From positions 1 through 64,000 of the forward strand of contig JBHGAY010000015.1 in NCBI GenBank assembly GCA_041946735.1: a stretch of DNA of 64,000 nt, in the 5' to 3' direction. Below, piece after piece: positions 13,461-28,081 of the stretch (position 1 is its first letter; every line of letters begins with the position of its first letter). The stretch comes from Candidatus Eiseniibacteriota bacterium (GTDB taxonomy: Bacteria > Eisenbacteria > RBG-16-71-46 > CAIMUX01 > VGJL01). The notes under the pieces were generated by a model. It was not told where the DNA came from. It saw only the letters and a list, made by a program, of their open reading frames with translations, and searched no databases. A program made the translations under genes and the position numbers.

Positions 13461-13561
13461 GCGATAGCTCGCGGCGCACTCGGCCGGGGCGCGCGGCGGG
13501 GCGGCGCAGCGCGGGGCAGCGCAGGGCGGCGCCCGACTACCTGACCGATTGCGTCTGCCCC

Positions 13562-13655
13562 GCCGCGCGGCGCCGGGCCGCGCCGGGATCTGTGCGCGCG
13601 GCTGCACGGCGCCGGGCCACGCCGGGATGTGTGCGCCCCGCCGCACGGCGCCGCA
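13562..13655. repeat. 39-bp intergenic tandem repeat (about 2.4 copies) between convergent genes
   Basis: gccgcgcggcgccgggccgcgccgggatctgtgcgcgcg / gctgcacggcgccgggccacgccgggatgtgtgcgcccc / gccgcacggcgccgc. Confidence 0.75.
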
Positions 13656-15672: not shown

Positions 15673-16611
15673 CTAGCGCTGAGCGGAACCGGCCCCCGCC
15701 GACGATCCGCCCGTCCGCCCGCTGGACTCCCTGCGCACCGGAACGAGCGCCGGAGATGTCTTCTCGTCGAGACCGAGCACCGTGACGAGGTCCGAGTTCC
15801 CCGGGATCACATACTTCACGTTCTGCGCGAGGGTCGCCTGCAGAACGTCGAGTTGCTTCGAGAGCGCCGCGCGATCGTGGAAGAACTGCTCGGTCGCGGT
15901 CGAGATCATCTCGATCGCCTTTGCCTCCGCAGTGGCGCGCGTCAGCCGCGCCTGCGCGTCTCCCTCGGCCTTCAGGATCTCGGCCTGCTTGAACCCCTCG
16001 GCGCGCAGGATCTCGCTCTGCCGCACCCCTTCCGACTCGAGGATCAGGGCTCGTTTGTCGCGCTCCGCCTTCATCTGGCGGCTCATCGCCTCGGTGATGT
16101 CGACGGGCGGATCGATCTTCTGCACCTCGACGCGCGTCACTTTCACACCCCAGGTGTTCGTAGCCTCGTCGAGGACGGCTCGCAGGTTCGTGTTGATCAT
16201 GTCGCGCGCGATCAAGGTTTCGTCGAGCGTCTTGTCGCCGATCAGATTCCTCAAGTTGGTCTGGGCGAGGGTGGTGGCGGCGAGGCCGAAATGCTGCACC
16301 TCGAAGACGGCGCGCACCGGATCGACGACGCGGTAGTAGATCACCGCGTCGACGGTGACCGTCACGTTGTCGCGCGTGATGACCTTCTGCGGTTCGACAT
16401 TGATCACCTGCTCGCGCATGTCGACCTTGATCAGCTCGTCGACCAGCGGCGTCAGGAACGTGAGCCCCGAGCTCGCCGTCGCGTGATACTTGCCGAGGCG
16501 CAGGACGAGCCCCTTCTCGTACTGCGAGACGATCCGCGCGCTCCTGGCGAGGATGATCAGGAGCACGAAGGCGAAGAAACCGACGATGATCAGGGTCGCG
16601 TTATGGCTCAT
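15673..16611 (-). CDS. SPFH/band 7 (QmcA-like) protein
   Basis: N-terminal TM; VITRDNVTVTVDAVIYY, WGVKVTRVE, MSRQMKAERDKRA; start overlaps the nfeD stop. Confidence 0.93.
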   Translation of the reverse strand: MSHNATLIIVGFFAFVLLIILARSARIVSQYEKGLVLRLGKYHATASSGLTFLTPLVDELIKVDMREQVINVEPQKVITRDNVTVTVDAVIYYRVVDPVRAVFEVQHFGLAATTLAQTNLRNLIGDKTLDETLIARDMINTNLRAVLDEATNTWGVKVTRVEVQKIDPPVDITEAMSRQMKAERDKRALILESEGVRQSEILRAEGFKQAEILKAEGDAQARLTRATAEAKAIEMISTATEQFFHDRAALSKQLDVLQATLAQNVKYVIPGNSDLVTVLGLDEKTSPALVPVRRESSGRTGGSSAGAGSAQR

Positions 16612-17078
16612 CACGCACCTCCGCCGGACGATCCCGGCTGCTCGGGGACGACGTAGAGGGTCACACCGTCGATTCGCGTCACGCGCGCGCGCGATCCGGG
16701 CTCGATCGGACCTCGGACCCCCGCGTCGAGGCAGGCCCTCCATTCCTCCCCCTCGGTCCGGATCCGACCGGGCCGATCGGAACTGATCGTCTCGACGACC
16801 TGCACGGTCTTGCCGAGGATCGCGTCGGTGTTCGTCGCCAGCCCGCCGCGGCCCCAGCGATTCCGGATGCGGCGGCGGCCGGCGAAGACGTAGAGGAGCG
16901 AGAGGATTCCGCCTGCGGCGACGCCGATCGCCGCCGACTTCGTGAGCAGGCCGAGGACTCCGCCGAGGAGGATCGCCGACCCGATCAAGAGGAAGTCGAA
17001 GCCGGTCACCGCGCCGAGGACGACCTCGATCAGGATCAGGACCGCTCCTGCGATGACGAGCAGCCAGTTCACCATCAT
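16611..17078 (-). CDS. NfeD family membrane protein
   Basis: TM helices plus OB domain (GRIRTEGEEWRA...VTRIDGVTLYV); classic partner of SPFH genes. Confidence 0.88.
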   Translation of the reverse strand: MMVNWLLVIAGAVLILIEVVLGAVTGFDFLLIGSAILLGGVLGLLTKSAAIGVAAGGILSLLYVFAGRRRIRNRWGRGGLATNTDAILGKTVQVVETISSDRPGRIRTEGEEWRACLDAGVRGPIEPGSRARVTRIDGVTLYVVPEQPGSSGGGA

Positions 17079-17261: not shown

Positions 17262-17879
17262 ATGTCCCATCCGTTTCTGATCGGCCGCCGGGTCCAGCTT
17301 CGCGCGATCGAGGAGGAGGACGCGCCGGCGTACGTCGAGTGGCTCAGCTCCCCGGACATGCGCGAGTTCCTGCTGATCCGCTTTCCGCAGACGACGCAGG
17401 GGGAGCGGGAGTGGATCGCGTCGATGCGCGGGAAGGAGAAGCCGCCGGCGAACCTGGTCTTCTCGATCGAACGCAAGAGCGACGGGCGTCACATCGGCTG
17501 CTGCGCCCTGCACCAGATCGACTGGGTCCACCGGCGGGCGATGACCGGCAGCTTCCTCGGGCCGCCGGCGTTGCGGGGCAAGGGGCTGGGGACCGAGGCG
17601 AAGAACCTGCTGCTCGACTACGCCTTCGGGGAGCTGGGCTTGCAGTCGATCTGGGCGATCGCCTTCGACCGGAATGCCGCCTCGCGCCGGGCGCTGGAGA
17701 AGCAGGGATACCGGGCGAGCGGCGTGTTCCGGAAGGCGTTCCTGGTCGGCGGCGAGTGGAGCGACGCCGTCTACTTCGACCTCCTGCGCGAGGAGTGGGC
17801 GGCGATGCGCGGGGCGAGGAAGGGAGCGGGAGGCGGCCAGGCGGCGCGAAGCGGCAGGAGGTCGGCGGGCCGGGCCTAG
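17262..17879 (+). CDS. GNAT N-acetyltransferase, RimJ/RimL family
   Basis: LIGRRVQLRAI, RGKGLGTEAK, AFDRNAASRRALEKQGY. Confidence 0.9.
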   Translation: MSHPFLIGRRVQLRAIEEEDAPAYVEWLSSPDMREFLLIRFPQTTQGEREWIASMRGKEKPPANLVFSIERKSDGRHIGCCALHQIDWVHRRAMTGSFLGPPALRGKGLGTEAKNLLLDYAFGELGLQSIWAIAFDRNAASRRALEKQGYRASGVFRKAFLVGGEWSDAVYFDLLREEWAAMRGARKGAGGGQAARSGRRSAGRA

Positions 17880-17946
17880 CTGGCCGAGCCCTGGACGGCG
17901 AGCGCTCGGCGGCGCGGATGCGGCGACCGCCCGACGGCGACGGAGG

Positions 17947-18368
17947 CGGCGACCGCCCGGCTGTCCGCGCGTTCGAAGCGACCGGCTGCGGGTGCCGGAG
18001 GCGTTGTCCCCGCGTTCTAAGTGACCGGCCGCGGTGCTGGACGCGTTGTGCCCGCGTTTGAAGCGGCCGGCAGCGGCGCCAGACGTGCTGCTCCCGCCTT
18101 CGACGTCCCCGGCACCGCTGGGCGAGCCATGATGCGGGCGCATCCTCCGCCATGCAGCGGTGCCGCACCCACCTGCTCTCCCGCACGATCAGGCGCGCAG
18201 CGCCGCCGGACGCATCGTCCCCGCGCATCGGTCCTCACGCAGCGCCAGCGGCCCCAGGATCCCGCCGGAAGTCCCGCTCAGCAGCACTGCGGGACGTATT
18301 GTCCCCGCTTTCGGTGCGCCATGCAGCGCTGCGGGACCTATTGTTCCCGTTTTCGGTGGTGCCAGCAG
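17947..18368 (+). repeat. Left arm of a degenerate 42-bp tandem array (10 units)
   Basis: Unit starts 17947, 17989, 18032, 18074, 18116, 18158, 18201, 18243, 18285, 18327; approximate consensus cgctgcgggacgca ttgtccc cgcgtttcggtgcgccatgcag; junction gcag|cg. Confidence 0.85.
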
Positions 18369-18371
18369 GAC

Positions 18372-18709
18372 GAGTTGACACGAAAGAAAACGTAGAAAAC
18401 CTGGCCTGCGCCACCGAATGTCCCATCGCAGGCACGGAAAAGGTCACCCGCGGCGCTGCGCGCCACGTAATACGCAGGAACAGGGTGTCCCGCAGCGCCG
18501 GCGGAAGTGGTGAACACTCGGAACAGCTCGTCGCGCAGCGCCGGCGACCCCCCGAGACGCCGGAACAGCCCGTCCGCGCCTGCTGCAGGACGCATCGAAA
18601 CTGGGGACAATGCGTCCAGCAGTCCTGCAGGCACCATTGATACGCGAGGATCGTGTTACAGACAGCGCGGCATGACGCACCGAAAGCGGGGACGATAGGT
18701 CCTGCAGTG
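18372..18709 (-). repeat. Right, inverted arm of the same 42-bp array (about 8 units)
   Basis: Reverse-complement units start at 18709, 18667, 18624, 18582, 18540, 18497, 18455, 18413; 18663-18709 matches 18285-18331 at 42 of 47 positions. Confidence 0.85.
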
Positions 18710-19024
18710 GCGTCAAACGGGCTGTACCGACGCGCATCGTTTACAGCCCTGACAAGGGTCGGCTACACCGGCGTGTCGCGACGGGATGTCGGCCGGCCAG
18801 TATCTCCCTGTCGATCTCTCGACCGTTGCTCGCTCTCCTCCTCCCCACCCTTACGACATGACCGTTTATGAACGACGAACGATACCGGTCTGTCTCGCAA
18901 GGATTGCCAACGAGTTACGGAAGTCGAAGAAGCACGGAGATCGCTTCTCGCAACCAATGGCCCACCTCGTGCGTAGGTAGGGTGGCAAGGGCGAAACCGG
19001 CCTCTTGCCGGAAAGGAGCAGGTC

Positions 19025-19768
19025 ATGAGACTGCCACTCATCAGCTGGGGCGCCGAAGGCATCCGTCGCGCGGGGATCTTCATCGTGGCGATGCTGAAGG
19101 CGTGGCTGGGCATCCCGGTCGAGATCGTGAACGCCTTCGTCGCCCGGCAGGACGGGCTGGTCGCCCGCATCAACGAGTGCGGCCAGGCTGCCGACCGGAC
19201 GGTGGAGGCCAAGGCGAACTGCAACTACCGGAAGGGGGAGCTGATCCGGTGCGTGCGGCGGCTCGCGAGCGAGCTGAAGCTGGCGTGCGGCAACAACGCC
19301 CGCGCACCCCTCTATCGGTTCTTCTTCCCGAAGGGGCTGCCTGCCTTCACACGGTCGACGATCGAGTCGGTCGTCGTGCAGGTGCAGGAGCTGCACACGA
19401 AGATCGCCCTCGATGGCTGCCCGCCCTCGGTGGCGCCGTTCGCGGAGCCCCTCGCGTCCCTGCGAAGCGATCTCGAGCAGGCGGTCCAGGCACTGAAGGG
19501 CTGCCAGGAGGACGAGGCCCAGGCGAAGATCGCGTACGAGAACGAGAAGCTGCTGTGGATCGAGGCGTACGCCCAGCTCTACCACCGACTGCGCGCGCAC
19601 TTCGCCACCCAGCCGGAGCTGGCCGAGACCTTCTTCCCGGCGCCACGAATCCGCCGGCGGTCCTCGGAGGAGGCGCTGCTGGAGGGAGCGACTGCAAGCG
19701 ATGCCGGAAACGGGAACGGGAGCGAAAGCACATCCGTGGCGGCGGCGCAACCGCCCGCGGCGGCGTAG
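19025..19768 (+). CDS. Orphan alpha-helical protein with a two-fold internal repeat
   Basis: SD GAAAGGAG; both halves are long amphipathic helices ending in FFP (LYRFFFPKG, LAETFFPAP); no catalytic motif recognised. Confidence 0.85.
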   Translation: MRLPLISWGAEGIRRAGIFIVAMLKAWLGIPVEIVNAFVARQDGLVARINECGQAADRTVEAKANCNYRKGELIRCVRRLASELKLACGNNARAPLYRFFFPKGLPAFTRSTIESVVVQVQELHTKIALDGCPPSVAPFAEPLASLRSDLEQAVQALKGCQEDEAQAKIAYENEKLLWIEAYAQLYHRLRAHFATQPELAETFFPAPRIRRRSSEEALLEGATASDAGNGNGSESTSVAAAQPPAAA

Positions 19769-19926
19769 CGGCCGCCCGGGGACCAAGGCCGCATCGATAC
19801 GAAAGGAGGGCCGCGTAGTACCCCGGCAGGAGCCGTAGCCGGGGAGTTTCGAGGAGTGACAGATGCGGACGACATCGGGGCTGCGGTCCGTCACCGGATC
19901 GCAGCCCCTGTTCCTTGGGGCGGCCG
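19769..19926 (+). ncRNA. Candidate structured RNA element (multi-branched, about 158 nt)
   Basis: Nested stems 19769-77/19918-26, 19784-88/19913-17, 19789-95/19862-68, 19800-04/19847-51, 19821-27/19838-44, 19877-90/19895-908. Confidence 0.4.
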
Positions 19927-21149: not shown

Positions 21150-22832
21150 CTACTTCGCCGCGGAGTCGATGACCAGATAGATCGTGGCGAGCTGCGAGAG
21201 CACTCCGAGCGTCGTGAGGGCTGACTTCCATAGGTCGCGCTGCGGCTTCCGGGGAACCCATATCGTGTCGCCCGGGCCGAGGCGGTCCACCTTGCCCTTC
21301 TTGATCCACTGGCCGGTCAGGGCGCGCACGACGGTGACCTTCCCTTTGTCGGCCTGGTCCGTGTAGCCGCCGGAGCGTTCCACGTAGCGGTCGATCTCCT
21401 CGCCCGCCAGGAACGGCACGTTGCCGGGGCGGCGCACCTCGCCCGCGACCGTGACGAACGGCTGGATCTTTGGAACGACCACGAGGTCGCCGGGCCGTAC
21501 GTAGACGTCCTGCGATCTGTCCCCCTCGAGAAAGAGAGCGGGGAAGTCCACCGAGAGGACCGGCCGGCTCGTCCGCAGCCTCATGGAGTAGTACTGGAAC
21601 TCCTCCGGGGTCATCTCGCCGGTCGGAAGCTGGCGCAGGCGATCGTACTCCGGGTCGGGCACCGCCTCCGGAATGTCTCGCGTGACGTACGCCTCCCCGA
21701 GCGCGGCGGTCGGCGTGAACCCTCCGACGTCCGCGATGAGCTGTGTGAGCAGCAGGGAGTCGGTGGGGAGCGCGTGCATCCCCGGGTTTCGCACCTCGCC
21801 GATCACGCGGACGGTCCGGCCTTCGCTGCGCTCGACACGCGGCCGCACGAAGAGAAGATCGCCCGGGCCGACGAGCATCGCGCGGTCGGCCGGATTGCGC
21901 AGGTCGAGGAGTCGCCGCGGGCGCGGCGCATCGCGCGACCCGCCGGACTGCAGATACGCGGAATCGGGCATCGCCTCCTCGTCGAGGCCATGCGCGAGGG
22001 CGAGGAGCGTTCCCACCGAGTCGCCCGGGACCACCTCGACCGGGCCGGGCTTGCGGACCGCGCCGCTCACCACCGCGGTCGCGACGTACGGCGGGACCAC
22101 GATACGGTCCCCCGCTTCGACGGTGGGATTGTGGATGAGCGCGCCGGTCGCCTCGAAGAGGGCGAGATCGACGGGGAGCACGTTGCCGTCCTGGCGAAGA
22201 AGGCGAATCGCGCGCTGCGAGCTGCGGCGAGGTTGCGCCGAGCCGGCGAGGCTCGTGAGAGGCGCGGCCGCCGCCTGCTCCAGCTCTCGCTGGCCGATCT
22301 CGAACGGCTCCGCCCGAGTGACGAGCTCCGAGGCGCGGTCGTTCGGCGTGGCTTGCTGCAGTCCCGGCTTTCGCACCTCCCCGAGGACGTAAGCGGTGAT
22401 CGTCCGCAGCTCGAGCAGGTGCAGATCGACCTCTCCGGAGCGGTAGTAGCGGGACATCGTGTCGCGGAGGAGATCGTTCGCTTGCTCGATCGTAAGGCCT
22501 GCAACGTGCACGGACGGCCCCTCCGGAAGGATCAGGTATCCGTCGGGCGTGACGCGCAGCGTTCGTTCGACGGGCGGGGTCGCGCGAACGCGGAGGCTCA
22601 ACAGGTCTCCGGGCCCGAGACGGTAGGCCGAGCGGTCGACGGGTCCTTCCAGCGGTCGCGGGAGCGGAGTCGTCCCGAGCGTACCCGGCTGGCTGTCCCC
22701 CGCAGTCCCGGGCGGCGCCGCCGGCGTTTGCGCTCCTGCGTTGCCGGACAAAGTGCATGCGAGGAGGGACGCAAGGAGCAGGAGGATCGTGCAGGCGCCT
22801 GCGCGCCACGGCCGCTTCTGGAACATCCTCAT
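21150..22832 (-). CDS. Polysaccharide export protein with SLBB repeats (Wza/KpsD-like)
   Basis: YRLGPGDLL, VTPDGYLILP, repeated V.GEVR.PG motifs; ATGA overlap with the upstream GT2. Confidence 0.9.
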   Translation of the reverse strand: MRMFQKRPWRAGACTILLLLASLLACTLSGNAGAQTPAAPPGTAGDSQPGTLGTTPLPRPLEGPVDRSAYRLGPGDLLSLRVRATPPVERTLRVTPDGYLILPEGPSVHVAGLTIEQANDLLRDTMSRYYRSGEVDLHLLELRTITAYVLGEVRKPGLQQATPNDRASELVTRAEPFEIGQRELEQAAAAPLTSLAGSAQPRRSSQRAIRLLRQDGNVLPVDLALFEATGALIHNPTVEAGDRIVVPPYVATAVVSGAVRKPGPVEVVPGDSVGTLLALAHGLDEEAMPDSAYLQSGGSRDAPRPRRLLDLRNPADRAMLVGPGDLLFVRPRVERSEGRTVRVIGEVRNPGMHALPTDSLLLTQLIADVGGFTPTAALGEAYVTRDIPEAVPDPEYDRLRQLPTGEMTPEEFQYYSMRLRTSRPVLSVDFPALFLEGDRSQDVYVRPGDLVVVPKIQPFVTVAGEVRRPGNVPFLAGEEIDRYVERSGGYTDQADKGKVTVVRALTGQWIKKGKVDRLGPGDTIWVPRKPQRDLWKSALTTLGVLSQLATIYLVIDSAAK

Positions 22833-23824
22833 CCCTCCCGGCTCTCCCGGCTCGATCCGGCGGCGGCTTTGCCTGCCTGCGGCGCGGTCGCGCCCCCTGA
22901 TCCCGTCTTTGGCCCCCGCGCAGCTTCCCACACTTTCAGGACTTCGAGAAACCCATAGATCCCGAGCATCGAGCTGGTTGCGATGCCGATCCTGCCCTCG
23001 CGCCAGCCGCTCAGGCGCAGGTAGGACCAGAGGAAGAGGCGGACTCCCGCCCAGATGGCGATGAGGCCGGTCCGGGAGCGCGCCGCCTTGAGGCCCATGG
23101 CGGAGGTGCCGGGCGAGGTGCCGTCCAGGATGCGCTGCGCCTCGCGCGTCGTGTAACGGTTCGTCTTGCGGATGAAGTCGCGGAGGGTGGGATACGGCTC
23201 GTGGAGGATCGGCGCGGCAAGGCGTCCCACCGTCCCGTCGACCTCGAGCGGCTCGTGGATGGCGTGCAAACGGTAGCGACCCCTGCCGGAGCGGAAGAGG
23301 CGGATCAGCCGGCGATGCCGGCCCCAGTAGCCGTAGCTCGGCCAGGTCCCGAGCACCGAGGTCCAGAACGGGATCGCGAAGGCCGCGTCGCTCGGCTGCG
23401 ACGCGACCGCCGCCCGCATCTCGGCGGCAAGCTCCGGCGAGACGCGCTCGTCCGCATCGACCTGCAGGATCCAGCCCGCGGGGATCTGCGGGAACGCCCA
23501 GTTGAGATTGCCGTGCACCGGGTCGATCTCGGGCGGCAGCACGTGCGGAACGATCCACGAGGTGAAGCCCGCGGCGATCTCGACGGTCCGGTCGGTCGAG
23601 CCGTTGTCGACCAGGAGGATCCGGTCGGCCCAGAGGAGGGAGCGGAGGCATCGCTCGATGTTCGCTTCTTCGTTCAGGGCGAGGACGACGGCGGTGATCG
23701 CGTGGGGATCGGTGGCCGGGCCGCCCGGCAGCGGGAGCGAATCCGACGCCGGTGCCCGCGACGGTGCGGGTGCGGACGGCATGCCGCCGGGAACGTTCAG
23801 CGGAGCGGAAGCGCCCGCGCCCAT
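22829..23824 (-). CDS. GT2 glycosyltransferase
   Basis: VVLALNEEANIERCL, VDNGSTDRT, VDADE; start uncertain (23782 or 23824). Confidence 0.9.
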   Translation of the reverse strand: MGAGASAPLNVPGGMPSAPAPSRAPASDSLPLPGGPATDPHAITAVVLALNEEANIERCLRSLLWADRILLVDNGSTDRTVEIAAGFTSWIVPHVLPPEIDPVHGNLNWAFPQIPAGWILQVDADERVSPELAAEMRAAVASQPSDAAFAIPFWTSVLGTWPSYGYWGRHRRLIRLFRSGRGRYRLHAIHEPLEVDGTVGRLAAPILHEPYPTLRDFIRKTNRYTTREAQRILDGTSPGTSAMGLKAARSRTGLIAIWAGVRLFLWSYLRLSGWREGRIGIATSSMLGIYGFLEVLKVWEAARGPKTGSGGATAPQAGKAAAGSSRESREG

Positions 23825-24945
23825 TCGTAGGTCTCCAGGGTTGCCTGCACGCATCCCGAGATCGTATAGGAGCGAGCCCAGCGCTCGTGCCCGGCGGCGC
23901 CGAGAGCCGCGCGCCGCTGCGGATCGAGCGCGAGGCGAAGGACCGCCTCCGACATCGCCGCCGGATCGCGCGGTTCGACGAGCAGCCCCGTTTCTCCGTC
24001 GGCGACGATCTCCGGGATCCCGCCGGCGCGCGTCGCGACGATCGGCAGCCCAGACGCCATCGCCTCGAGCAGCACGATGCCGAGCGCCTCCTGGCGGGAG
24101 GGGAGAACGAAGAGATCGGCAGCCGCCATCAGTCGGGCGAGATCGCGCCGGAAGCCGAGCAGGCGGAGCCGCTCGCCGGCGGGAGAGCCGTCCGCCGCCG
24201 ATCGGAGGCGCGCATCGAGCGGCCCGCGACCGGCCATCAGGAGATAGAGATCCGGGGCATCGGCGCGGCGGACCGCTCGCTCGAACGCCTCCCAGAGGTC
24301 GAGCGTCCCCTTCGTCTCATCGAGCCGTCCGGCGAAGAGCAGGAGGATCGCCGGCTGCGCGATCTTCAGCTCCTCGCGGACCTCGCGCCGCGCCGCCGCC
24401 CGCTCGACGGAGTTGCCGTCGACGCCGTGCGGGATCACGCGGATGCGCTCGGGCGGGAAGCGGTAGACGGAGGCGACGGCGCGAGCGACCACCTCACTCG
24501 GCGCGATGTAGAAGCGGGTGCGGCGCGCGCCGGCCCGCTCGATCCACAGACGCGGCCCGGTGCGCTGGTAGGGGGACCGTAGAACGTGGCCGTGCTCGGT
24601 CGCTGCGATCGCCATCGCGGGAACGCGCGGGAGAAGGGCGCGCAGCCAGGGGACCGAGACGTGGTCGTGGAGGAGCGCCGGGCGGAGCGCGCGCACCGCG
24701 CTCGCCACGGCCCTGGGCCCGCGCGGGTCGCGGCCGGTCGTCAGCCCGCAGCAGCGCACACCGGCTCCGGCGCTGCGCAGGATATCGCCCGCTCCACCGT
24801 CCCTCGAGAGATAGAGGACGCCGCAGCGCACGCCTTGCCGCGCCATCCCGACCGAGAGATCGAGGACGTGACGCTCGGCGCCGCCGCCGGTCCCCTCCCA
24901 CAGGACGTGGAGGACGTCGAGAGCGCGAGGCGCCTCGGTGCTCAT
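23797..24945 (-). CDS. GT4 glycosyltransferase
   Basis: GGGAERHV, FAGRLDETKG, PSRQEALGIVLLEAMASG. Confidence 0.92.
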   Translation of the reverse strand: MSTEAPRALDVLHVLWEGTGGGAERHVLDLSVGMARQGVRCGVLYLSRDGGAGDILRSAGAGVRCCGLTTGRDPRGPRAVASAVRALRPALLHDHVSVPWLRALLPRVPAMAIAATEHGHVLRSPYQRTGPRLWIERAGARRTRFYIAPSEVVARAVASVYRFPPERIRVIPHGVDGNSVERAAARREVREELKIAQPAILLLFAGRLDETKGTLDLWEAFERAVRRADAPDLYLLMAGRGPLDARLRSAADGSPAGERLRLLGFRRDLARLMAAADLFVLPSRQEALGIVLLEAMASGLPIVATRAGGIPEIVADGETGLLVEPRDPAAMSEAVLRLALDPQRRAALGAAGHERWARSYTISGCVQATLETYEWARALPLR

Positions 24946-26471
24946 CCGCGGATCCGCTGCATCGCGGTTCGGGCGAACGGATGCCTCAGCATCCAGAGAA
25001 CGAGGAAGTAGGCGAGGAGCCCGGCGATGCCCGCGGCCGCGAGATCGAGAAGGGCGTCTCCCCATCCCGCGAGCGGGACTGCCGGAAGCGCGCGAAGCAA
25101 GACGGCCGCCGCCACCGCCGACGTCGCCGCCCCCGCCAGCGCCGCCCCCGCCCCTCGTGCCGCCGCGCTCCACAGGCTCGCCGGCAGGCGCTTGTGCACG
25201 ATCGCGAGCAGCACGACACAGGAAGTCCAGAGGCCGGTAGCCACGCCGATCGGGACCCACAGCAGCCCGAAGCGGAGCGCGAGCAGGTTCGCGATTCCGG
25301 TCACCACGAGCTGGATGCCGCCGGCCAAGGCGAGCGGCCGCGTGCGCTGCGTCGCGTAGGAGAAGTCGCGGAGCAGGTAGTAGACGGCGACCGGCAGCAC
25401 GCCGAGGACACCGATACGCAGCAGCGTTGCTACCCCGTGGACGTCCTGCGCGTCGAAGAGGCCGCGCTGGAACGCCAGCTCCACAATCTGCGGGGCGAGG
25501 AGCAGCACGAACGCGGTGATCGGCAGGAAGAGGAAGAGGTTCAGGTCGAGGCCGCGCGCGAGCGTGTGGGCGCGGTCCGCCCCGCCGGCCGATCGATCCC
25601 GCGACATCGTGACGTAGATCGGAAGCGCCACCGACGCGGCGAGGACGGTCTGCAGCGGGGCGATCAGCTTGCGCGAGTAGGCGAGCATCGAGAGGCTCCC
25701 GGCCGGCAGGAAGGAGAGGACCGCGCGCTCGATGTAGCCCGCCGCCTGCACGAGGAAGACGCCGAGCGCGACCGGGGCGACGAGCGTGCCGACGCGCCGC
25801 AGCTCCGGCGGCAGCAGCGGGTGTCGCAGCAGCGCGCCTACCGGCCAGCCTGGCAGCAGCAGGACGAGGAGCAGCGCCTGCGCGAGCGCCGCGCCGTCGA
25901 GCGCGAACATCCAGCCGCGGTACGCCATCGTGGGCGGGAAGGCGAGCAGTACGGCCGTCTGGAGGAGGTTTCCGGTCAGCATGACGAGCGCGGGGACCGC
26001 GTAGCGGTGGTGCGCGTTGTGGATCGTCTTCGCGAACTCCGCCAGCTCGGTGAAGAAGAGCGCCGGCGCGACCGCGCGCAGCAGGCGGGCGCCCGTCTCG
26101 ATCTGCTCCGGACCGAGGCCTGGGGCGACCATCCGCAGGATCGCGACGGGCCAGAGCACCACGGCGAGCGACAGCGCGCCGGCCGCGAGCGCCGTGGCGC
26201 GGAGCCCCGAGCTGCGCAGGCGCGCGGCGCGCTCCCCGCTTGCGTCCTCCTCGAGCGCGTGCCCGTAGACCGACACGAACGCGGCGAACGTCTCCCGGAC
26301 GAGCAGGATCGTCGGTAGGAAGAGGAGCACCGCCTCGGCGTAGACGACGAGGTCGGCGCTGCGCGAGACCCCGAAGCGCGCGGCGATCGAGGCGTTGCGC
26401 GCGAGAGCGGCGAGGTTCGCGGCGACCGAGAGCGCGGTCACCGTCCCGATGCGGCGTCCGAGGAGGCTCAC
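24942..26471 (-). CDS. MurJ/MviN-like MOP flippase
   Basis: Many TM segments; IAARFGVS, IVELAFQRGLFD. Confidence 0.8.
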   Translation of the reverse strand: MSLLGRRIGTVTALSVAANLAALARNASIAARFGVSRSADLVVYAEAVLLFLPTILLVRETFAAFVSVYGHALEEDASGERAARLRSSGLRATALAAGALSLAVVLWPVAILRMVAPGLGPEQIETGARLLRAVAPALFFTELAEFAKTIHNAHHRYAVPALVMLTGNLLQTAVLLAFPPTMAYRGWMFALDGAALAQALLLVLLLPGWPVGALLRHPLLPPELRRVGTLVAPVALGVFLVQAAGYIERAVLSFLPAGSLSMLAYSRKLIAPLQTVLAASVALPIYVTMSRDRSAGGADRAHTLARGLDLNLFLFLPITAFVLLLAPQIVELAFQRGLFDAQDVHGVATLLRIGVLGVLPVAVYYLLRDFSYATQRTRPLALAGGIQLVVTGIANLLALRFGLLWVPIGVATGLWTSCVVLLAIVHKRLPASLWSAAARGAGAALAGAATSAVAAAVLLRALPAVPLAGWGDALLDLAAAGIAGLLAYFLVLWMLRHPFARTAMQRIRG

Positions 26472-28081
26472 GGCCGGCCTCCCTCCGGCGCGGCGAGCGC
26501 CGAGCGCGCGGGAAGCGGCGCACCGGACGGCAGCGGCTCACCGGCCGGTTGCGCCGCGCCTGCCGGCAAAGGCGTTCCCACCGGCAGCGCCGCCCGCGAT
26601 CCCTCCTCGACCTCCCGCTCGTACAGCCGCCGCCACGCGAACCCGGTCAGCATCCAGAACAGCAGGTTCGACGGGTTCGTGTTCATCGGGCCGTTGGAGA
26701 GATTCGCGATGAGCAGCACCGCCACCGCGGATCCCGCGATGACCCCGAACCGGCGCTCGTCAGGGTCGCGGCTGCGCGCGAGCCTCCCCAGCGCGATCAG
26801 CGGAAGCAGATGGACCGAGAAGAGGGCGAGCCAGCCGATCCATCCCGCCTCGAGCGCGGTCGTCAGGTAGAAGTTGTCGGTCGGGATCCCCCCCTCGGCG
26901 CTCGACCGCATCCCGAGCTTGTAGTAGACGAGGAGGTTCGCCGTCGATCCGATGCCTCGTCCGATCACCGGCTCATCCCAGAGCAGCTTCCATCCGCGCC
27001 GGTTCTCCTCCAGACGGAAGACGAGCGAAGTCGAGACGCCCTTCTGCAACGTGAACGACGTCATGACCCGGTTGCGGATCAGATCCCCGAATCGGATCCA
27101 TCCGATCCCGGCGACGAGAAGGGTGACGATCAGAAACCACAGCAGGAGCTTCCCGCTCCTCTGGCGCACGACGAGGATCAAGACGAACAGGAAGACCGCG
27201 GAGATCATCGTCATGTTGTAGGTCAACAGCAGCGCGTAGCCGAGCAGCGCGAGGCCGAGGACCACGATCGCGCGCTTGCCCCTGCTGCTGGCCGCGCCGA
27301 GCAGGTGCAGGGAGAGCGCGATCCCGAGGAAGGAGAGCGCCGCGACCGAGGACTGATCGTCGAGGAACGAGAAGAGCCGCTGGTACAGCTTCCCGCTGAT
27401 CGGATCGACCGCCACGAACGCGACCATGCCGGTCTCCAGGCTCAGACCGAAGCGGAGCAGGGTCTCGACCGGGACGAACGACTGGATGACCGCTCCGAGC
27501 GCGACCGCGCAGCAGAGGCCGAAGACCCACCACAGGAATCGCGGTACGCGCGTCATGCCGCCCGCCGCGTCGTACGCGATGAAGATCAGGAGCGGGTAGA
27601 GGAGATAGCCGATCGTTGCGTTGACGATCTGGAGGGCCGGGACGCCGCGAGTCGCCGTGACGGCCGCGAGCATCCCGAAGATTGCCGCGGCCCCGCCGTA
27701 GACGGCGAGCGGAACTCGCGCGCCTCGCCAGTGAGGGGAGCGGTCGGCTGCGCGCGTCAGCAGCCAGATCGGCAGGATCGCCAGGAAGAAGATCCCTTTG
27801 AACCATCCGAGAGGGAGGTGGACGATCCGCGCGAAAAAGGGCGCGAAGGTAGCGTACAGCAGAAAGAACCCGAGGAAGAGCCCCGGGCGGAGGAGCAGCA
27901 GGAACGCGCCGGCCGCGGCGACCGCGCTCGCGGCGAGCAGGATCAGCCCTCCGAACGGCGGCTTCCAGACCATTCCGGCGATGAAGAGGATCGTGCCGAG
28001 CCCGAGACCGGGAAGGAGGTAAGCCGCCGGCGCCGGGATGCGGACAATGGGGGTTTCGAGGGAGCGGACGCCCGGAGTCAT
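26468..28081 (-). CDS. Wzy polymerase / O-antigen ligase family membrane protein
   Basis: Multiple TMs; PVIGRGIG...TDNFYLTTALEAGWIG. Confidence 0.8.
   Translation of the reverse strand: MTPGVRSLETPIVRIPAPAAYLLPGLGLGTILFIAGMVWKPPFGGLILLAASAVAAAGAFLLLLRPGLFLGFFLLYATFAPFFARIVHLPLGWFKGIFFLAILPIWLLTRAADRSPHWRGARVPLAVYGGAAAIFGMLAAVTATRGVPALQIVNATIGYLLYPLLIFIAYDAAGGMTRVPRFLWWVFGLCCAVALGAVIQSFVPVETLLRFGLSLETGMVAFVAVDPISGKLYQRLFSFLDDQSSVAALSFLGIALSLHLLGAASSRGKRAIVVLGLALLGYALLLTYNMTMISAVFLFVLILVVRQRSGKLLLWFLIVTLLVAGIGWIRFGDLIRNRVMTSFTLQKGVSTSLVFRLEENRRGWKLLWDEPVIGRGIGSTANLLVYYKLGMRSSAEGGIPTDNFYLTTALEAGWIGWLALFSVHLLPLIALGRLARSRDPDERRFGVIAGSAVAVLLIANLSNGPMNTNPSNLLFWMLTGFAWRRLYEREVEEGSRAALPVGTPLPAGAAQPAGEPLPSGAPLPARSALAAPEGGRP

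Follow-up and report, generated by a model that had tools for sequence, protein, structure and literature searches.

The array at positions 17947 to 18709 is a non-coding lattice of 42-bp units associated with a gene for an all-helical protein (ORF 19025-19768), and in the wider family of this gene it is the spacing of the units that is kept while their sequence turns over. The window, i.e. the whole stretch of 64,000 nucleotides that was analysed, is G000:C7:1-64000, where G000 denotes this genome and the C numbers its contigs; in it the array lies between a GNAT gene (17262-17879) and the ORF. When 49 deduplicated loci of the 19025 family were scanned and the strongest of 56 lags was taken, the strongest upstream lag was 41-44 nt in 46 of the 49, as against 1 of 48 downstream. 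Tentatively, and at a little short of an even chance, we read the array as a four-turn DNA lattice bound by its partner protein. The features on which the analysis is based are collected in Table 1.

Table 1. Coordinates of the array, the leader elements and the partner gene in the window.
Feature	Position	Strand	Remarks
26-bp duplication at left array edge	17896..17959	+	probably a by-product of slippage
Left arm	17947..18368	+	10 units (8 x 42, 2 x 43 nt), partly palindromic, with palindromic junctions
Unit L9	18285..18331	+	89% complementary to the outermost right unit R1 (18663-18709)
Orientation switch	18369..18371	.	junction lattice unbroken across the switch
Right arm	18372..18709	-	8 inverted units (6 x 42, 2 x 43 nt); innermost decayed, A/T-rich
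Hairpin (18712-18753) and terminal motif	18712..18768	.	partly common to the gene-less sisters C16 and C5
Leader box m1	18850..18873	+	occurs 7 times in the genome, followed each time by box m2
Box m2, predicted ECF-sigma promoter	18950..18975 (box to 18978)	+	GCAACC-N16-CGTA
RBS-like AGGAG	19014..19018	+	from sequence
Partner gene	19025..19768	+	247-aa all-helical protein, two homologous halves of ~103 aa, low-confidence tail

Period and sequence of the array

The first-pass annotation of this DNA had described a tail-to-tail array of ten plus about eight units with a near-strict period of 42 bp. All 18 units could be aligned in register, ten on the + strand (17947-18368) and eight on the - strand (18709-18372), and the four units named there as 43 nt long (starts 17989, 18158, 18667 and 18540) were recovered as such, the remaining units being of 42 nt. 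The period was borne out as well. In the left arm the autocorrelation is highest at lag 42 (0.497 against 0.30, z=10); in the right arm this lag reaches z=5.9, with lag 85 slightly higher (z=6.1), and none of 300 dinucleotide shuffles equalled these lag-42 values at any lag. No peak was found at lag 21 in the autocorrelation of the whole array sequence. The conserved motifs are present but looser than had been described, YTGTYCC being exact in 7 of the 18 units and GCAG closing 10 of them. Pairs of units have 9-37 of 42 letters in common and unit R8 is nearly decayed.

The interiors of the units are not unique, and the likeness between units extends along their length. The earlier suggestion of a precursor of fixed-length small RNAs with conserved ends and variable interiors is not supported, nor is a CRISPR array, because in a paralogous copy the units are the same ones in the same order, and they are near-identical between strains. 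The array gave no match to phage and plasmid records at E 0.1, and no cas genes were found among the flanking ORFs (GNAT, NfeD, Band 7, FlgD-like and the helical gene). Against 34 other genomes of the order only short matches at chance level were obtained, and an Rfam search of the region returned two chance-level hits, neither near its gathering score.

The array is not an assembly artefact, as the whole stretch is covered by a single contig of run X1, from which this DNA may stem, and contigs from studies X2 and X3 run across the arm switch with the orientation unchanged and with 3 and 0 differences, respectively. Raw reads of X8 at the array amount to 2 only, too few to show flipping. A joint in X2 (18374-18571) was discounted on account of its loose ends and attributed to the C16 paralogue.

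The array is non-coding

It had been argued from the 43-nt units that the repeat does not code for protein, and this view was upheld by several measures. There is no frame open through both arms. Between the array and its copy in C16 the substitutions per codon phase are 78, 63 and 63 of 251, i.e. without phase bias, and L079, a related array made of 13 units of 43 nt, carries stops in all six frames. Power at 3 nt was 0.8-1.4 times the mean in 37 array profiles (23 clusters), as against 2.7-8.0 in a coding control of 80 windows cut from the partner genes, and it was low in 13 pure-42 arrays as well. That the array once coded for a peptide with a 14-residue (heptad) repeat and has since decayed is therefore most improbable and already largely refuted by the low 3-nt power, the six-frame stops of L079 and the lack of codon bias against C16, even though 42 is divisible by three, the sense frame is often open in pure-42 arrays and heptad-coding DNA also gives a 10.5-nt T signal (2.25-fold in the coding control).

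A single lattice through both arms

Contig C16 contains a second copy of the whole two-armed array (75% over 754 bp). Units of the two copies pair one to one with their order retained, and the copies differ by 204 substitutions and only 5 one-base gaps, two of which cancel inside the right arm. C5 holds a third, more distant copy. Palindromes are located at the unit junctions and the lattice crosses the orientation switch without a break, the flanking junctions being 127 bp (3 periods) apart in C7, C16 and C5 alike. The whole C7 lattice measures 761 bp over 18 periods, which gives 42.3 bp per unit or 10.57 bp per turn. Units at the inner end of the left arm are similar to those at the outer end of the right arm (37 of 42 for L9 against R1), and in C5 the L9 and R1 positions are homogenised too, by a different sequence (37-38 of 42). 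The simplest origin of the two arms would be an inversion between palindromic junctions, which would leave the lattice in phase, with gene conversion or selection for pairing afterwards. In most arrays of the family the units have a single orientation and inverted ones are sporadic at most, so that the two-armed form, although real here, is a local variant of this lineage and not the essential feature.

Linkage of arrays to the helical gene family

A tie of the array to the 19025 protein had been hinted at earlier, and the strong co-occurrence of arrays and genes across the family loci argues for it at the level of sequence. Two of the 46 positive loci are weak, one because of a truncated flank and the other being the C40 paralogue, which is without an array. 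Under strict scoring, from which four duplicates among the genome loci and five near-duplicates among the metagenome loci were omitted, 36 of 62 loci scored above the best of 47 downstream controls. The peak is at lag 42 in 9 of 11 named loci, including those of Acidobacteriota, Aminicenantes and Planctomycetales, and inspection by eye of the remaining two reveals inverted halves in alternation, which repeat every 84 nt. L090 and L094 of Acidobacteriota consist, again by eye, of such alternating inverted halves of 42 nt (84-nt period) from ~470 to 60 nt upstream of the gene, so that the array comes close to the start codon. Related genes have related arrays and the arrays of different clades are unrelated in sequence; the sequence thus turns over and the period stays.

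Offsets between units were 42 (12189 cases), 43 (3627), 41 (1288) and 44 nt (205), with a mean of 42.1 or 10.53 bp per turn, so the earlier equation of the period with four turns of B-DNA holds for the family. Dyad symmetry of the units was seen in 27 of 37 arrays against a block-shuffled null. T is periodic at 10.5 nt (2.05-fold; 0 of 1000 permutations; 23 array clusters) and A less strongly (1.61-fold) and in anti-phase to T, and strand-symmetric measures at 10.5 nt are weak (W, p=0.03-0.06; AA/TT, z=0.6). In the A-minus-T signal the even harmonics 2, 4 and 6 are raised in 31 of the 37 arrays. This indicates a half unit of 21 bp, and the 10.5-nt signal may reflect only that. Neither a classical A-tract curvature signal nor a 10.5-nt spacing of local palindromes was found in the arrays. 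The arrays have a polarity with respect to the gene, 30 of 35 having more C than G on the strand of the gene. They end 50-111 nt short of the start codon at seven loci, which are from Acidobacteriota, Aminicenantes and metagenomes. Comparison of period and protein length on a quick tree gave no correlated change of length. The sole hint of such a link comes from L015 and L031 (G007), where 42- and 41-nt units alternate and the second long helix region of the protein clade is one residue shorter.

The partner protein

The AlphaFold2 model of the 19025 protein (pLDDT 91.7; 204 residues at pLDDT of at least 90) consists of helices only, in the predicted order short helix, 56-aa helix, YFPxG turn, short helix, 59-aa helix, ExFF and tail. 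Its two halves are homologous (probability 95%, E 3e-8; reversed control 0.6%). The distance from L45 to Y97 is 52 residues in 54 of 55 sequences, and helix lengths are near-invariant across the family at 20-25% identity. As modelled, the protein would be a rigid rod with an internal duplication and two-fold pseudo-symmetry. No residue is invariant among 137 homologues, the best-kept columns being M, F, P, G, W, L and Y. Several Arg/Lys columns are conserved and a basic patch follows the C-terminal FF in 62%; the core is neutral (median charge +1), and the 19025 copy is devoid of several conserved basic residues of the family.

Searches of the 137 homologues with Pfam, NCBIfam and PADLOC gave no family matched by more than 3 members, and no recognised DNA-binding domain was found in the protein by family-profile searches. 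DUF6261 (PF19775) was considered and set aside, as it matched 2 of the 137 at E 0.017 or worse with a best own-genome score of 11.4 against 27 bits; its atlas score is 0.87, and a distant relation is possible though the profile scores lie under the cut-off. The PQLLE model scored far under its cut-off. Foldseek found nothing in the PDB at E 0.001, and a wide fold search returned generic helical bundles (best Z 10.3 for McpZ, then LemA 10.2 and McpS 9.6), which neither name a function nor argue against one. Neighbours of the protein in the atlas are unnamed clusters.

In this genome the protein is matched 8 times; homologues occur in 11 of 61 relatives, with up to 22 matches in one. In the phylum they occur in 17 of 206 genomes, six of them marginal, and a library at 50% identity contains 933 representatives of the family at E 0.001. 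No relatives were found in viral contigs or plasmids, the plasmid search having been made with homologue P0010. Among the copies in this genome, C40:7526-8194 is a full-length paralogue on a long branch that stands directly behind another gene and has neither array nor leader boxes. At C27:52570-53635 (L006) a 3' fragment of a helical gene adjoins another fragment, which from its sequence we take to be related to an integron integrase. The 3' end of the partner gene and the downstream intergenic region (19743-19907) are common to the C65 paralogue (79% over 165 bp), and a 14-pair hairpin at 19877-19908 ends the common stretch.

Leader elements and a predicted ECF promoter

No T-tailed terminator was detected at the hairpin next to the array (18712-18768). 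Boxes m1 and m2 occur in seven copies each and always as a pair, upstream of five paralogues, of an ECF sigma/anti-sigma operon and of one other gene; a rescan with matrices built from those seven sites yielded one weak extra hit. Box m1 is likely a regulator site, and in 5 family relatives no convincing match to it was found. The ECF sigma of the operon scores 96 bits with TIGR02937 against a cut-off of 42.9. Box m2, GCAACC-N16-CGTA, resembles ECF promoters, for which the cited part of the literature gives AAC at -35 and CGTA or CGTC at -10 (PMC5758882). The motif is also present in the leader of the sigma gene itself, a feature of sigmaW-like regulons. The operon is at C72 (L113:521-1913). 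The seventh boxed gene, in C18 (L114), codes for a probably exported protein without a Pfam family and is a conserved unnamed member of the predicted regulon.

A matching motif derived from the leaders of helical genes was found 22 times in G009 and 20 times in G017 (controls 0 and 3). Thirty of these 42 sites were examined. Eight precede helical genes, and among the others are sites before genes for an ECF sigma, outer-membrane efflux proteins, a HlyD-type protein, ABC transporters and DUF4097 proteins; the homologue of the C18-type gene also carries a matching promoter in both genomes. Array scores before the 8 helical genes were strong in 3 and weak (43-87) in 5, and 21 of 22 non-helical sites scored 37-64, one having a short repeat. 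Family-wide the ECF-like motif is present in 22 of 57 leaders, as against 6 on the antisense strand and a mean of 8 (at most 14) in shuffles. Because the promoter is common to the ECF operon and to envelope genes, the helical genes look like part of an envelope-stress regulon, and we infer that they could be members of one in this genome and in the G009 and G017 lineages. As the predicted promoter is located between array and gene, the array would lie outside the gene's own mRNA. It should be noted here that an NfeD and SPFH/Band 7 pair is encoded near the array (15673-17078, - strand), with no promoter box found before it. NfeD and Band 7 pairs are typical of sigmaW-type stress regulons.

Arrays without an adjoining gene

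Scanning of the 4.9-Mb genome at lags 41-43 gave 26 non-coding segments, or ~24 distinct arrays. Three of the 26 segments flank a helical gene, to which C24 and the C19/C21 contig join are to be added; most arrays of 41-43 nt in this genome are thus without an adjoining gene. They fall into the families C7, C16 and C5; C11 and C4/C14; C15 and C12b; C24 and C56, with C6 and C43/C55 more loosely; C19/C21 alone; and C46 and C48, for which no gene is known. Gene-less sisters exist for 4 of 5 gene-linked array types (profile similarity 0.69-0.86 against a background of ~0.2-0.4). In G015, L261 is a gene-less sister of a gene-linked array, and seven other sampled candidates matched no gene-linked profile. 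Contig ends C4/C14, C19/C21 and C43/C55 match pairwise, with the breaks falling inside arrays, so that short-read assemblies give too low a number both of arrays and of their links to genes.

Three genomes without the gene contained 1 weak candidate in 1.2 Mb, as against 1 in G009 and 6 in G015 per 0.4 Mb each, in a small sample of related genomes of which G015 is rich in repeats at other periods too. It is suggestive only that genomes without the gene are poor in such arrays.

Interpretation of the array

Our reading of the array as a four-turn DNA lattice bound by the 19025 protein is drawn from the B-DNA spacing, the dyad-symmetric units, the flip that preserved the phase, the position of the array outside the predicted transcript and the rigid two-fold rod of the model. 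Binding of the protein to the lattice would be cooperative, with one dimer or rod to each 21 or 42 bp, and binding of this kind would keep the spacing rather than the sequence. The long helices measure ~8.5 nm (at 0.15 nm per residue) and 21 bp measure 7 nm, which is of the same order. The array in cis may tune or titrate its own gene, and the sister arrays may serve as extra sites or be relics. The 21 of 22 non-helical sites that share the promoter and have no array speak for the lattice. Several observations stand against it. The protein has no recognised DNA-binding domain and a neutral core, and the 19025 copy has lost basic residues; the arrays are polar, a property that would be superfluous in a purely symmetric DNA site; the 10.5-nt signal has T and A in anti-phase, is weak in strand-symmetric measures and may reflect only the 21-bp half unit; most of them are gene-less, the C40 paralogue has none, and the period tracks no change of protein length; and the ECF-like motif is confined to 22 of 57 leaders, with some arrays ending close to the start codon. 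A centromere- or iteron-like role, which had also been proposed for the array, finds no backing, since no ParB- or Rep-type gene is adjacent and about two dozen such arrays are present per genome.

The lattice reading can be carried further to a two-part system in which envelope stress would induce the rod proteins, each of them polymerising as a ruler on its private family of four-turn lattices, one beside the gene and others scattered, and so setting and maintaining the unit length of bacterial satellites. Such proteins would be the missing partner of the constant-size repeats. We regard this extension as doubtful, though worth stating.

An RNA alternative, which we consider unlikely, is that the array is transcribed and acts as a periodic RNA (scaffold, sponge or antitoxin) bound by the helical protein, in the manner of a type III toxin-antitoxin system. 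Repeats, hairpin and gene follow each other here as in the type III layout given in the cited part of PMC3401426, and the polarity of the arrays, their closeness to the start codon in some lineages and the homogenised L9/R1 units in two copies agree with it. The fold of the region is also more stable than that of 20 dinucleotide shuffles (z=-3.8), with a long stem of L9/L10 and R1; however, shuffles that preserve the repeats leave no folding excess in either arm (z=0.5 and -0.6), and the sense strand folds better than the antisense strand in 18 of 37 arrays only. A-form RNA has 11 bp per turn, whereas the period fits 10.5 bp per turn and 44-nt offsets are rare. The predicted promoter between array and gene, the lack of an Rfam match near its gathering score and the protein model also argue against an RNA. 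Type III systems have a single promoter, ahead of the repeats; the one predicted here lies downstream of the array, and a further one may lie upstream. ToxN, the endoribonuclease toxin, has a fold with beta strands, and the model of the helical protein has none.

It is rather improbable that the module is a slow intragenomic replicator of the RAYT/REPIN kind, whose paralogues copy or maintain their own families of arrays, the gene-less arrays being non-autonomous copies. The patchy and multi-copy distribution of the gene, present in 11 of 61 relatives and with as many as 22 matches in a single one, would fit, as would the gene-less sisters of 4 of 5 gene-linked types, L261 as one such sister in G015, and the related arrays of related genes. 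Against this, the 137 homologues share no invariant residue and their best-kept columns are unlike a nuclease site, the promoter is shared with envelope genes of the host, and no relative occurs in the viral contigs or plasmids searched. No defined ends or target duplications were resolved under end-mapping criteria that are lenient and non-discriminating.

To a similarly low degree the arrays could be satellites whose unit length is set by a process of the host, either a nucleoid protein or slippage by whole turns, and which the gene product does not read. About two dozen arrays of 41-43 nt in one genome, mostly without the gene, point this way, as do the constant-size satellites of Bacillus, for which the cited part of PMC8161180 names no partner. 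On the other hand, the arrays stand upstream and not downstream of the gene in protein clades that are 20-25% identical, and in other phyla as well; genes of other kinds under the same promoter are without an array; and genomes without the gene seem poor in such arrays.

Comparison with known systems

The closest parallel to the array itself is in the non-coding bacterial repeats described by Subirana and Messeguer, which have a constant size of 20-21 or 52 nt and a variable sequence (PMC8161180, PMC6749651). These authors propose a protein polymerising on the repeats and state that no interacting protein is known (PMC8161180). Both a non-coding tandem array of at least four units and several unrelated families of the same unit length, exact to one base more or less, are found here as in the cited descriptions, and so are short conserved words with their reverse inside one unit. 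In contrast to the described lengths of 20-21 or 52 nt, the present units are of 41-43 nt, a half unit of 21 nt being visible in no signal but A-minus-T, and they are followed by a dedicated gene family. What is new here is a class of constant-size repeats of 42-43 nt with a candidate partner protein. No description of such a module of array and gene was found in the literature searched, which was mostly that outside subscription papers.

By analogy, KfrA of IncU/IncP plasmids provides the nearest working model; as far as the cited part of PMC7783346 describes it, KfrA is an alpha-helical coiled-coil protein which forms oligomers and has a repetitive operator, located at the kfrA gene, as its binding site; the present protein is all-helical too. 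Unlike KfrA, the present system is chromosomal and multi-copy, its 42-bp units extend over 250-900 bp and precede the predicted promoter, and neither a KfrA-family hit among the Pfam matches listed nor a copy on plasmids was found. KfrA has an N-terminal DNA-binding domain, whereas no Pfam family was found for the 19025 protein. With RAYT-REPIN, in the cited part of PMC3116915, the module has in common several paralogues, each beside its own family of repeats, and gene-less copies elsewhere; it differs in that the repeats form tandem lattices and not REP doublets, that copies are few, and that an all-helical protein takes the place of the tyrosine transposase. Features of an HUH tyrosine transposase were looked for and there is no invariant column and no conserved His pair, and the model contains helices only. 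ToxIN and other type III systems likewise place a hairpin and a single gene after tandem repeats (PMC3401426, cited part), whereas the present units are degenerate, invertible and dyad-symmetric, the promoter is predicted downstream of the repeats and the protein is all-helical.

Among arrays of similar dimensions, sopC of the F plasmid has a period of ~43 bp, an internal palindrome and near-identical units which are read by a ParB-type protein. Period and palindrome are thus similar, but here there are many loci per chromosome and no ParA/ParB neighbour; no adjacent binder of the ParB or ParR type and no ParA or ParM motor was found. TIGR-Tas, in which a Nop-domain protein stands beside an array of ~36-nt units, was also considered and rejected, the period here being 42 and the neighbour being without a Pfam family.

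It is a stated question in the field how bacterial tandem repeats keep an exact unit length in spite of sequence drift, and the published guess of a polymerising protein had no candidate; the 19025 family would be the first. A large unnamed family stands behind such arrays almost wherever it was checked, and its protein is of small size, can be expressed and has a good model. There are natural controls as well: one genome contains cognate along with non-cognate arrays, the unit length varies between 42 and 43 nt, and one array has an inverted half that is in phase. Together these make a direct test possible. The shared ECF promoter gives the first physiological handle, envelope stress, on the helical genes.

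Other features of the window

Elsewhere in the window, G+C-rich repeats of 39 bp, REP-like in appearance, lie between convergent genes at 13485-13653. The region 21150-28081 resembles a cluster for surface polysaccharide, with ORFs that, by names assigned from their sequence, would code for an export protein, glycosyltransferases and flippase-like and polymerase-like membrane proteins.
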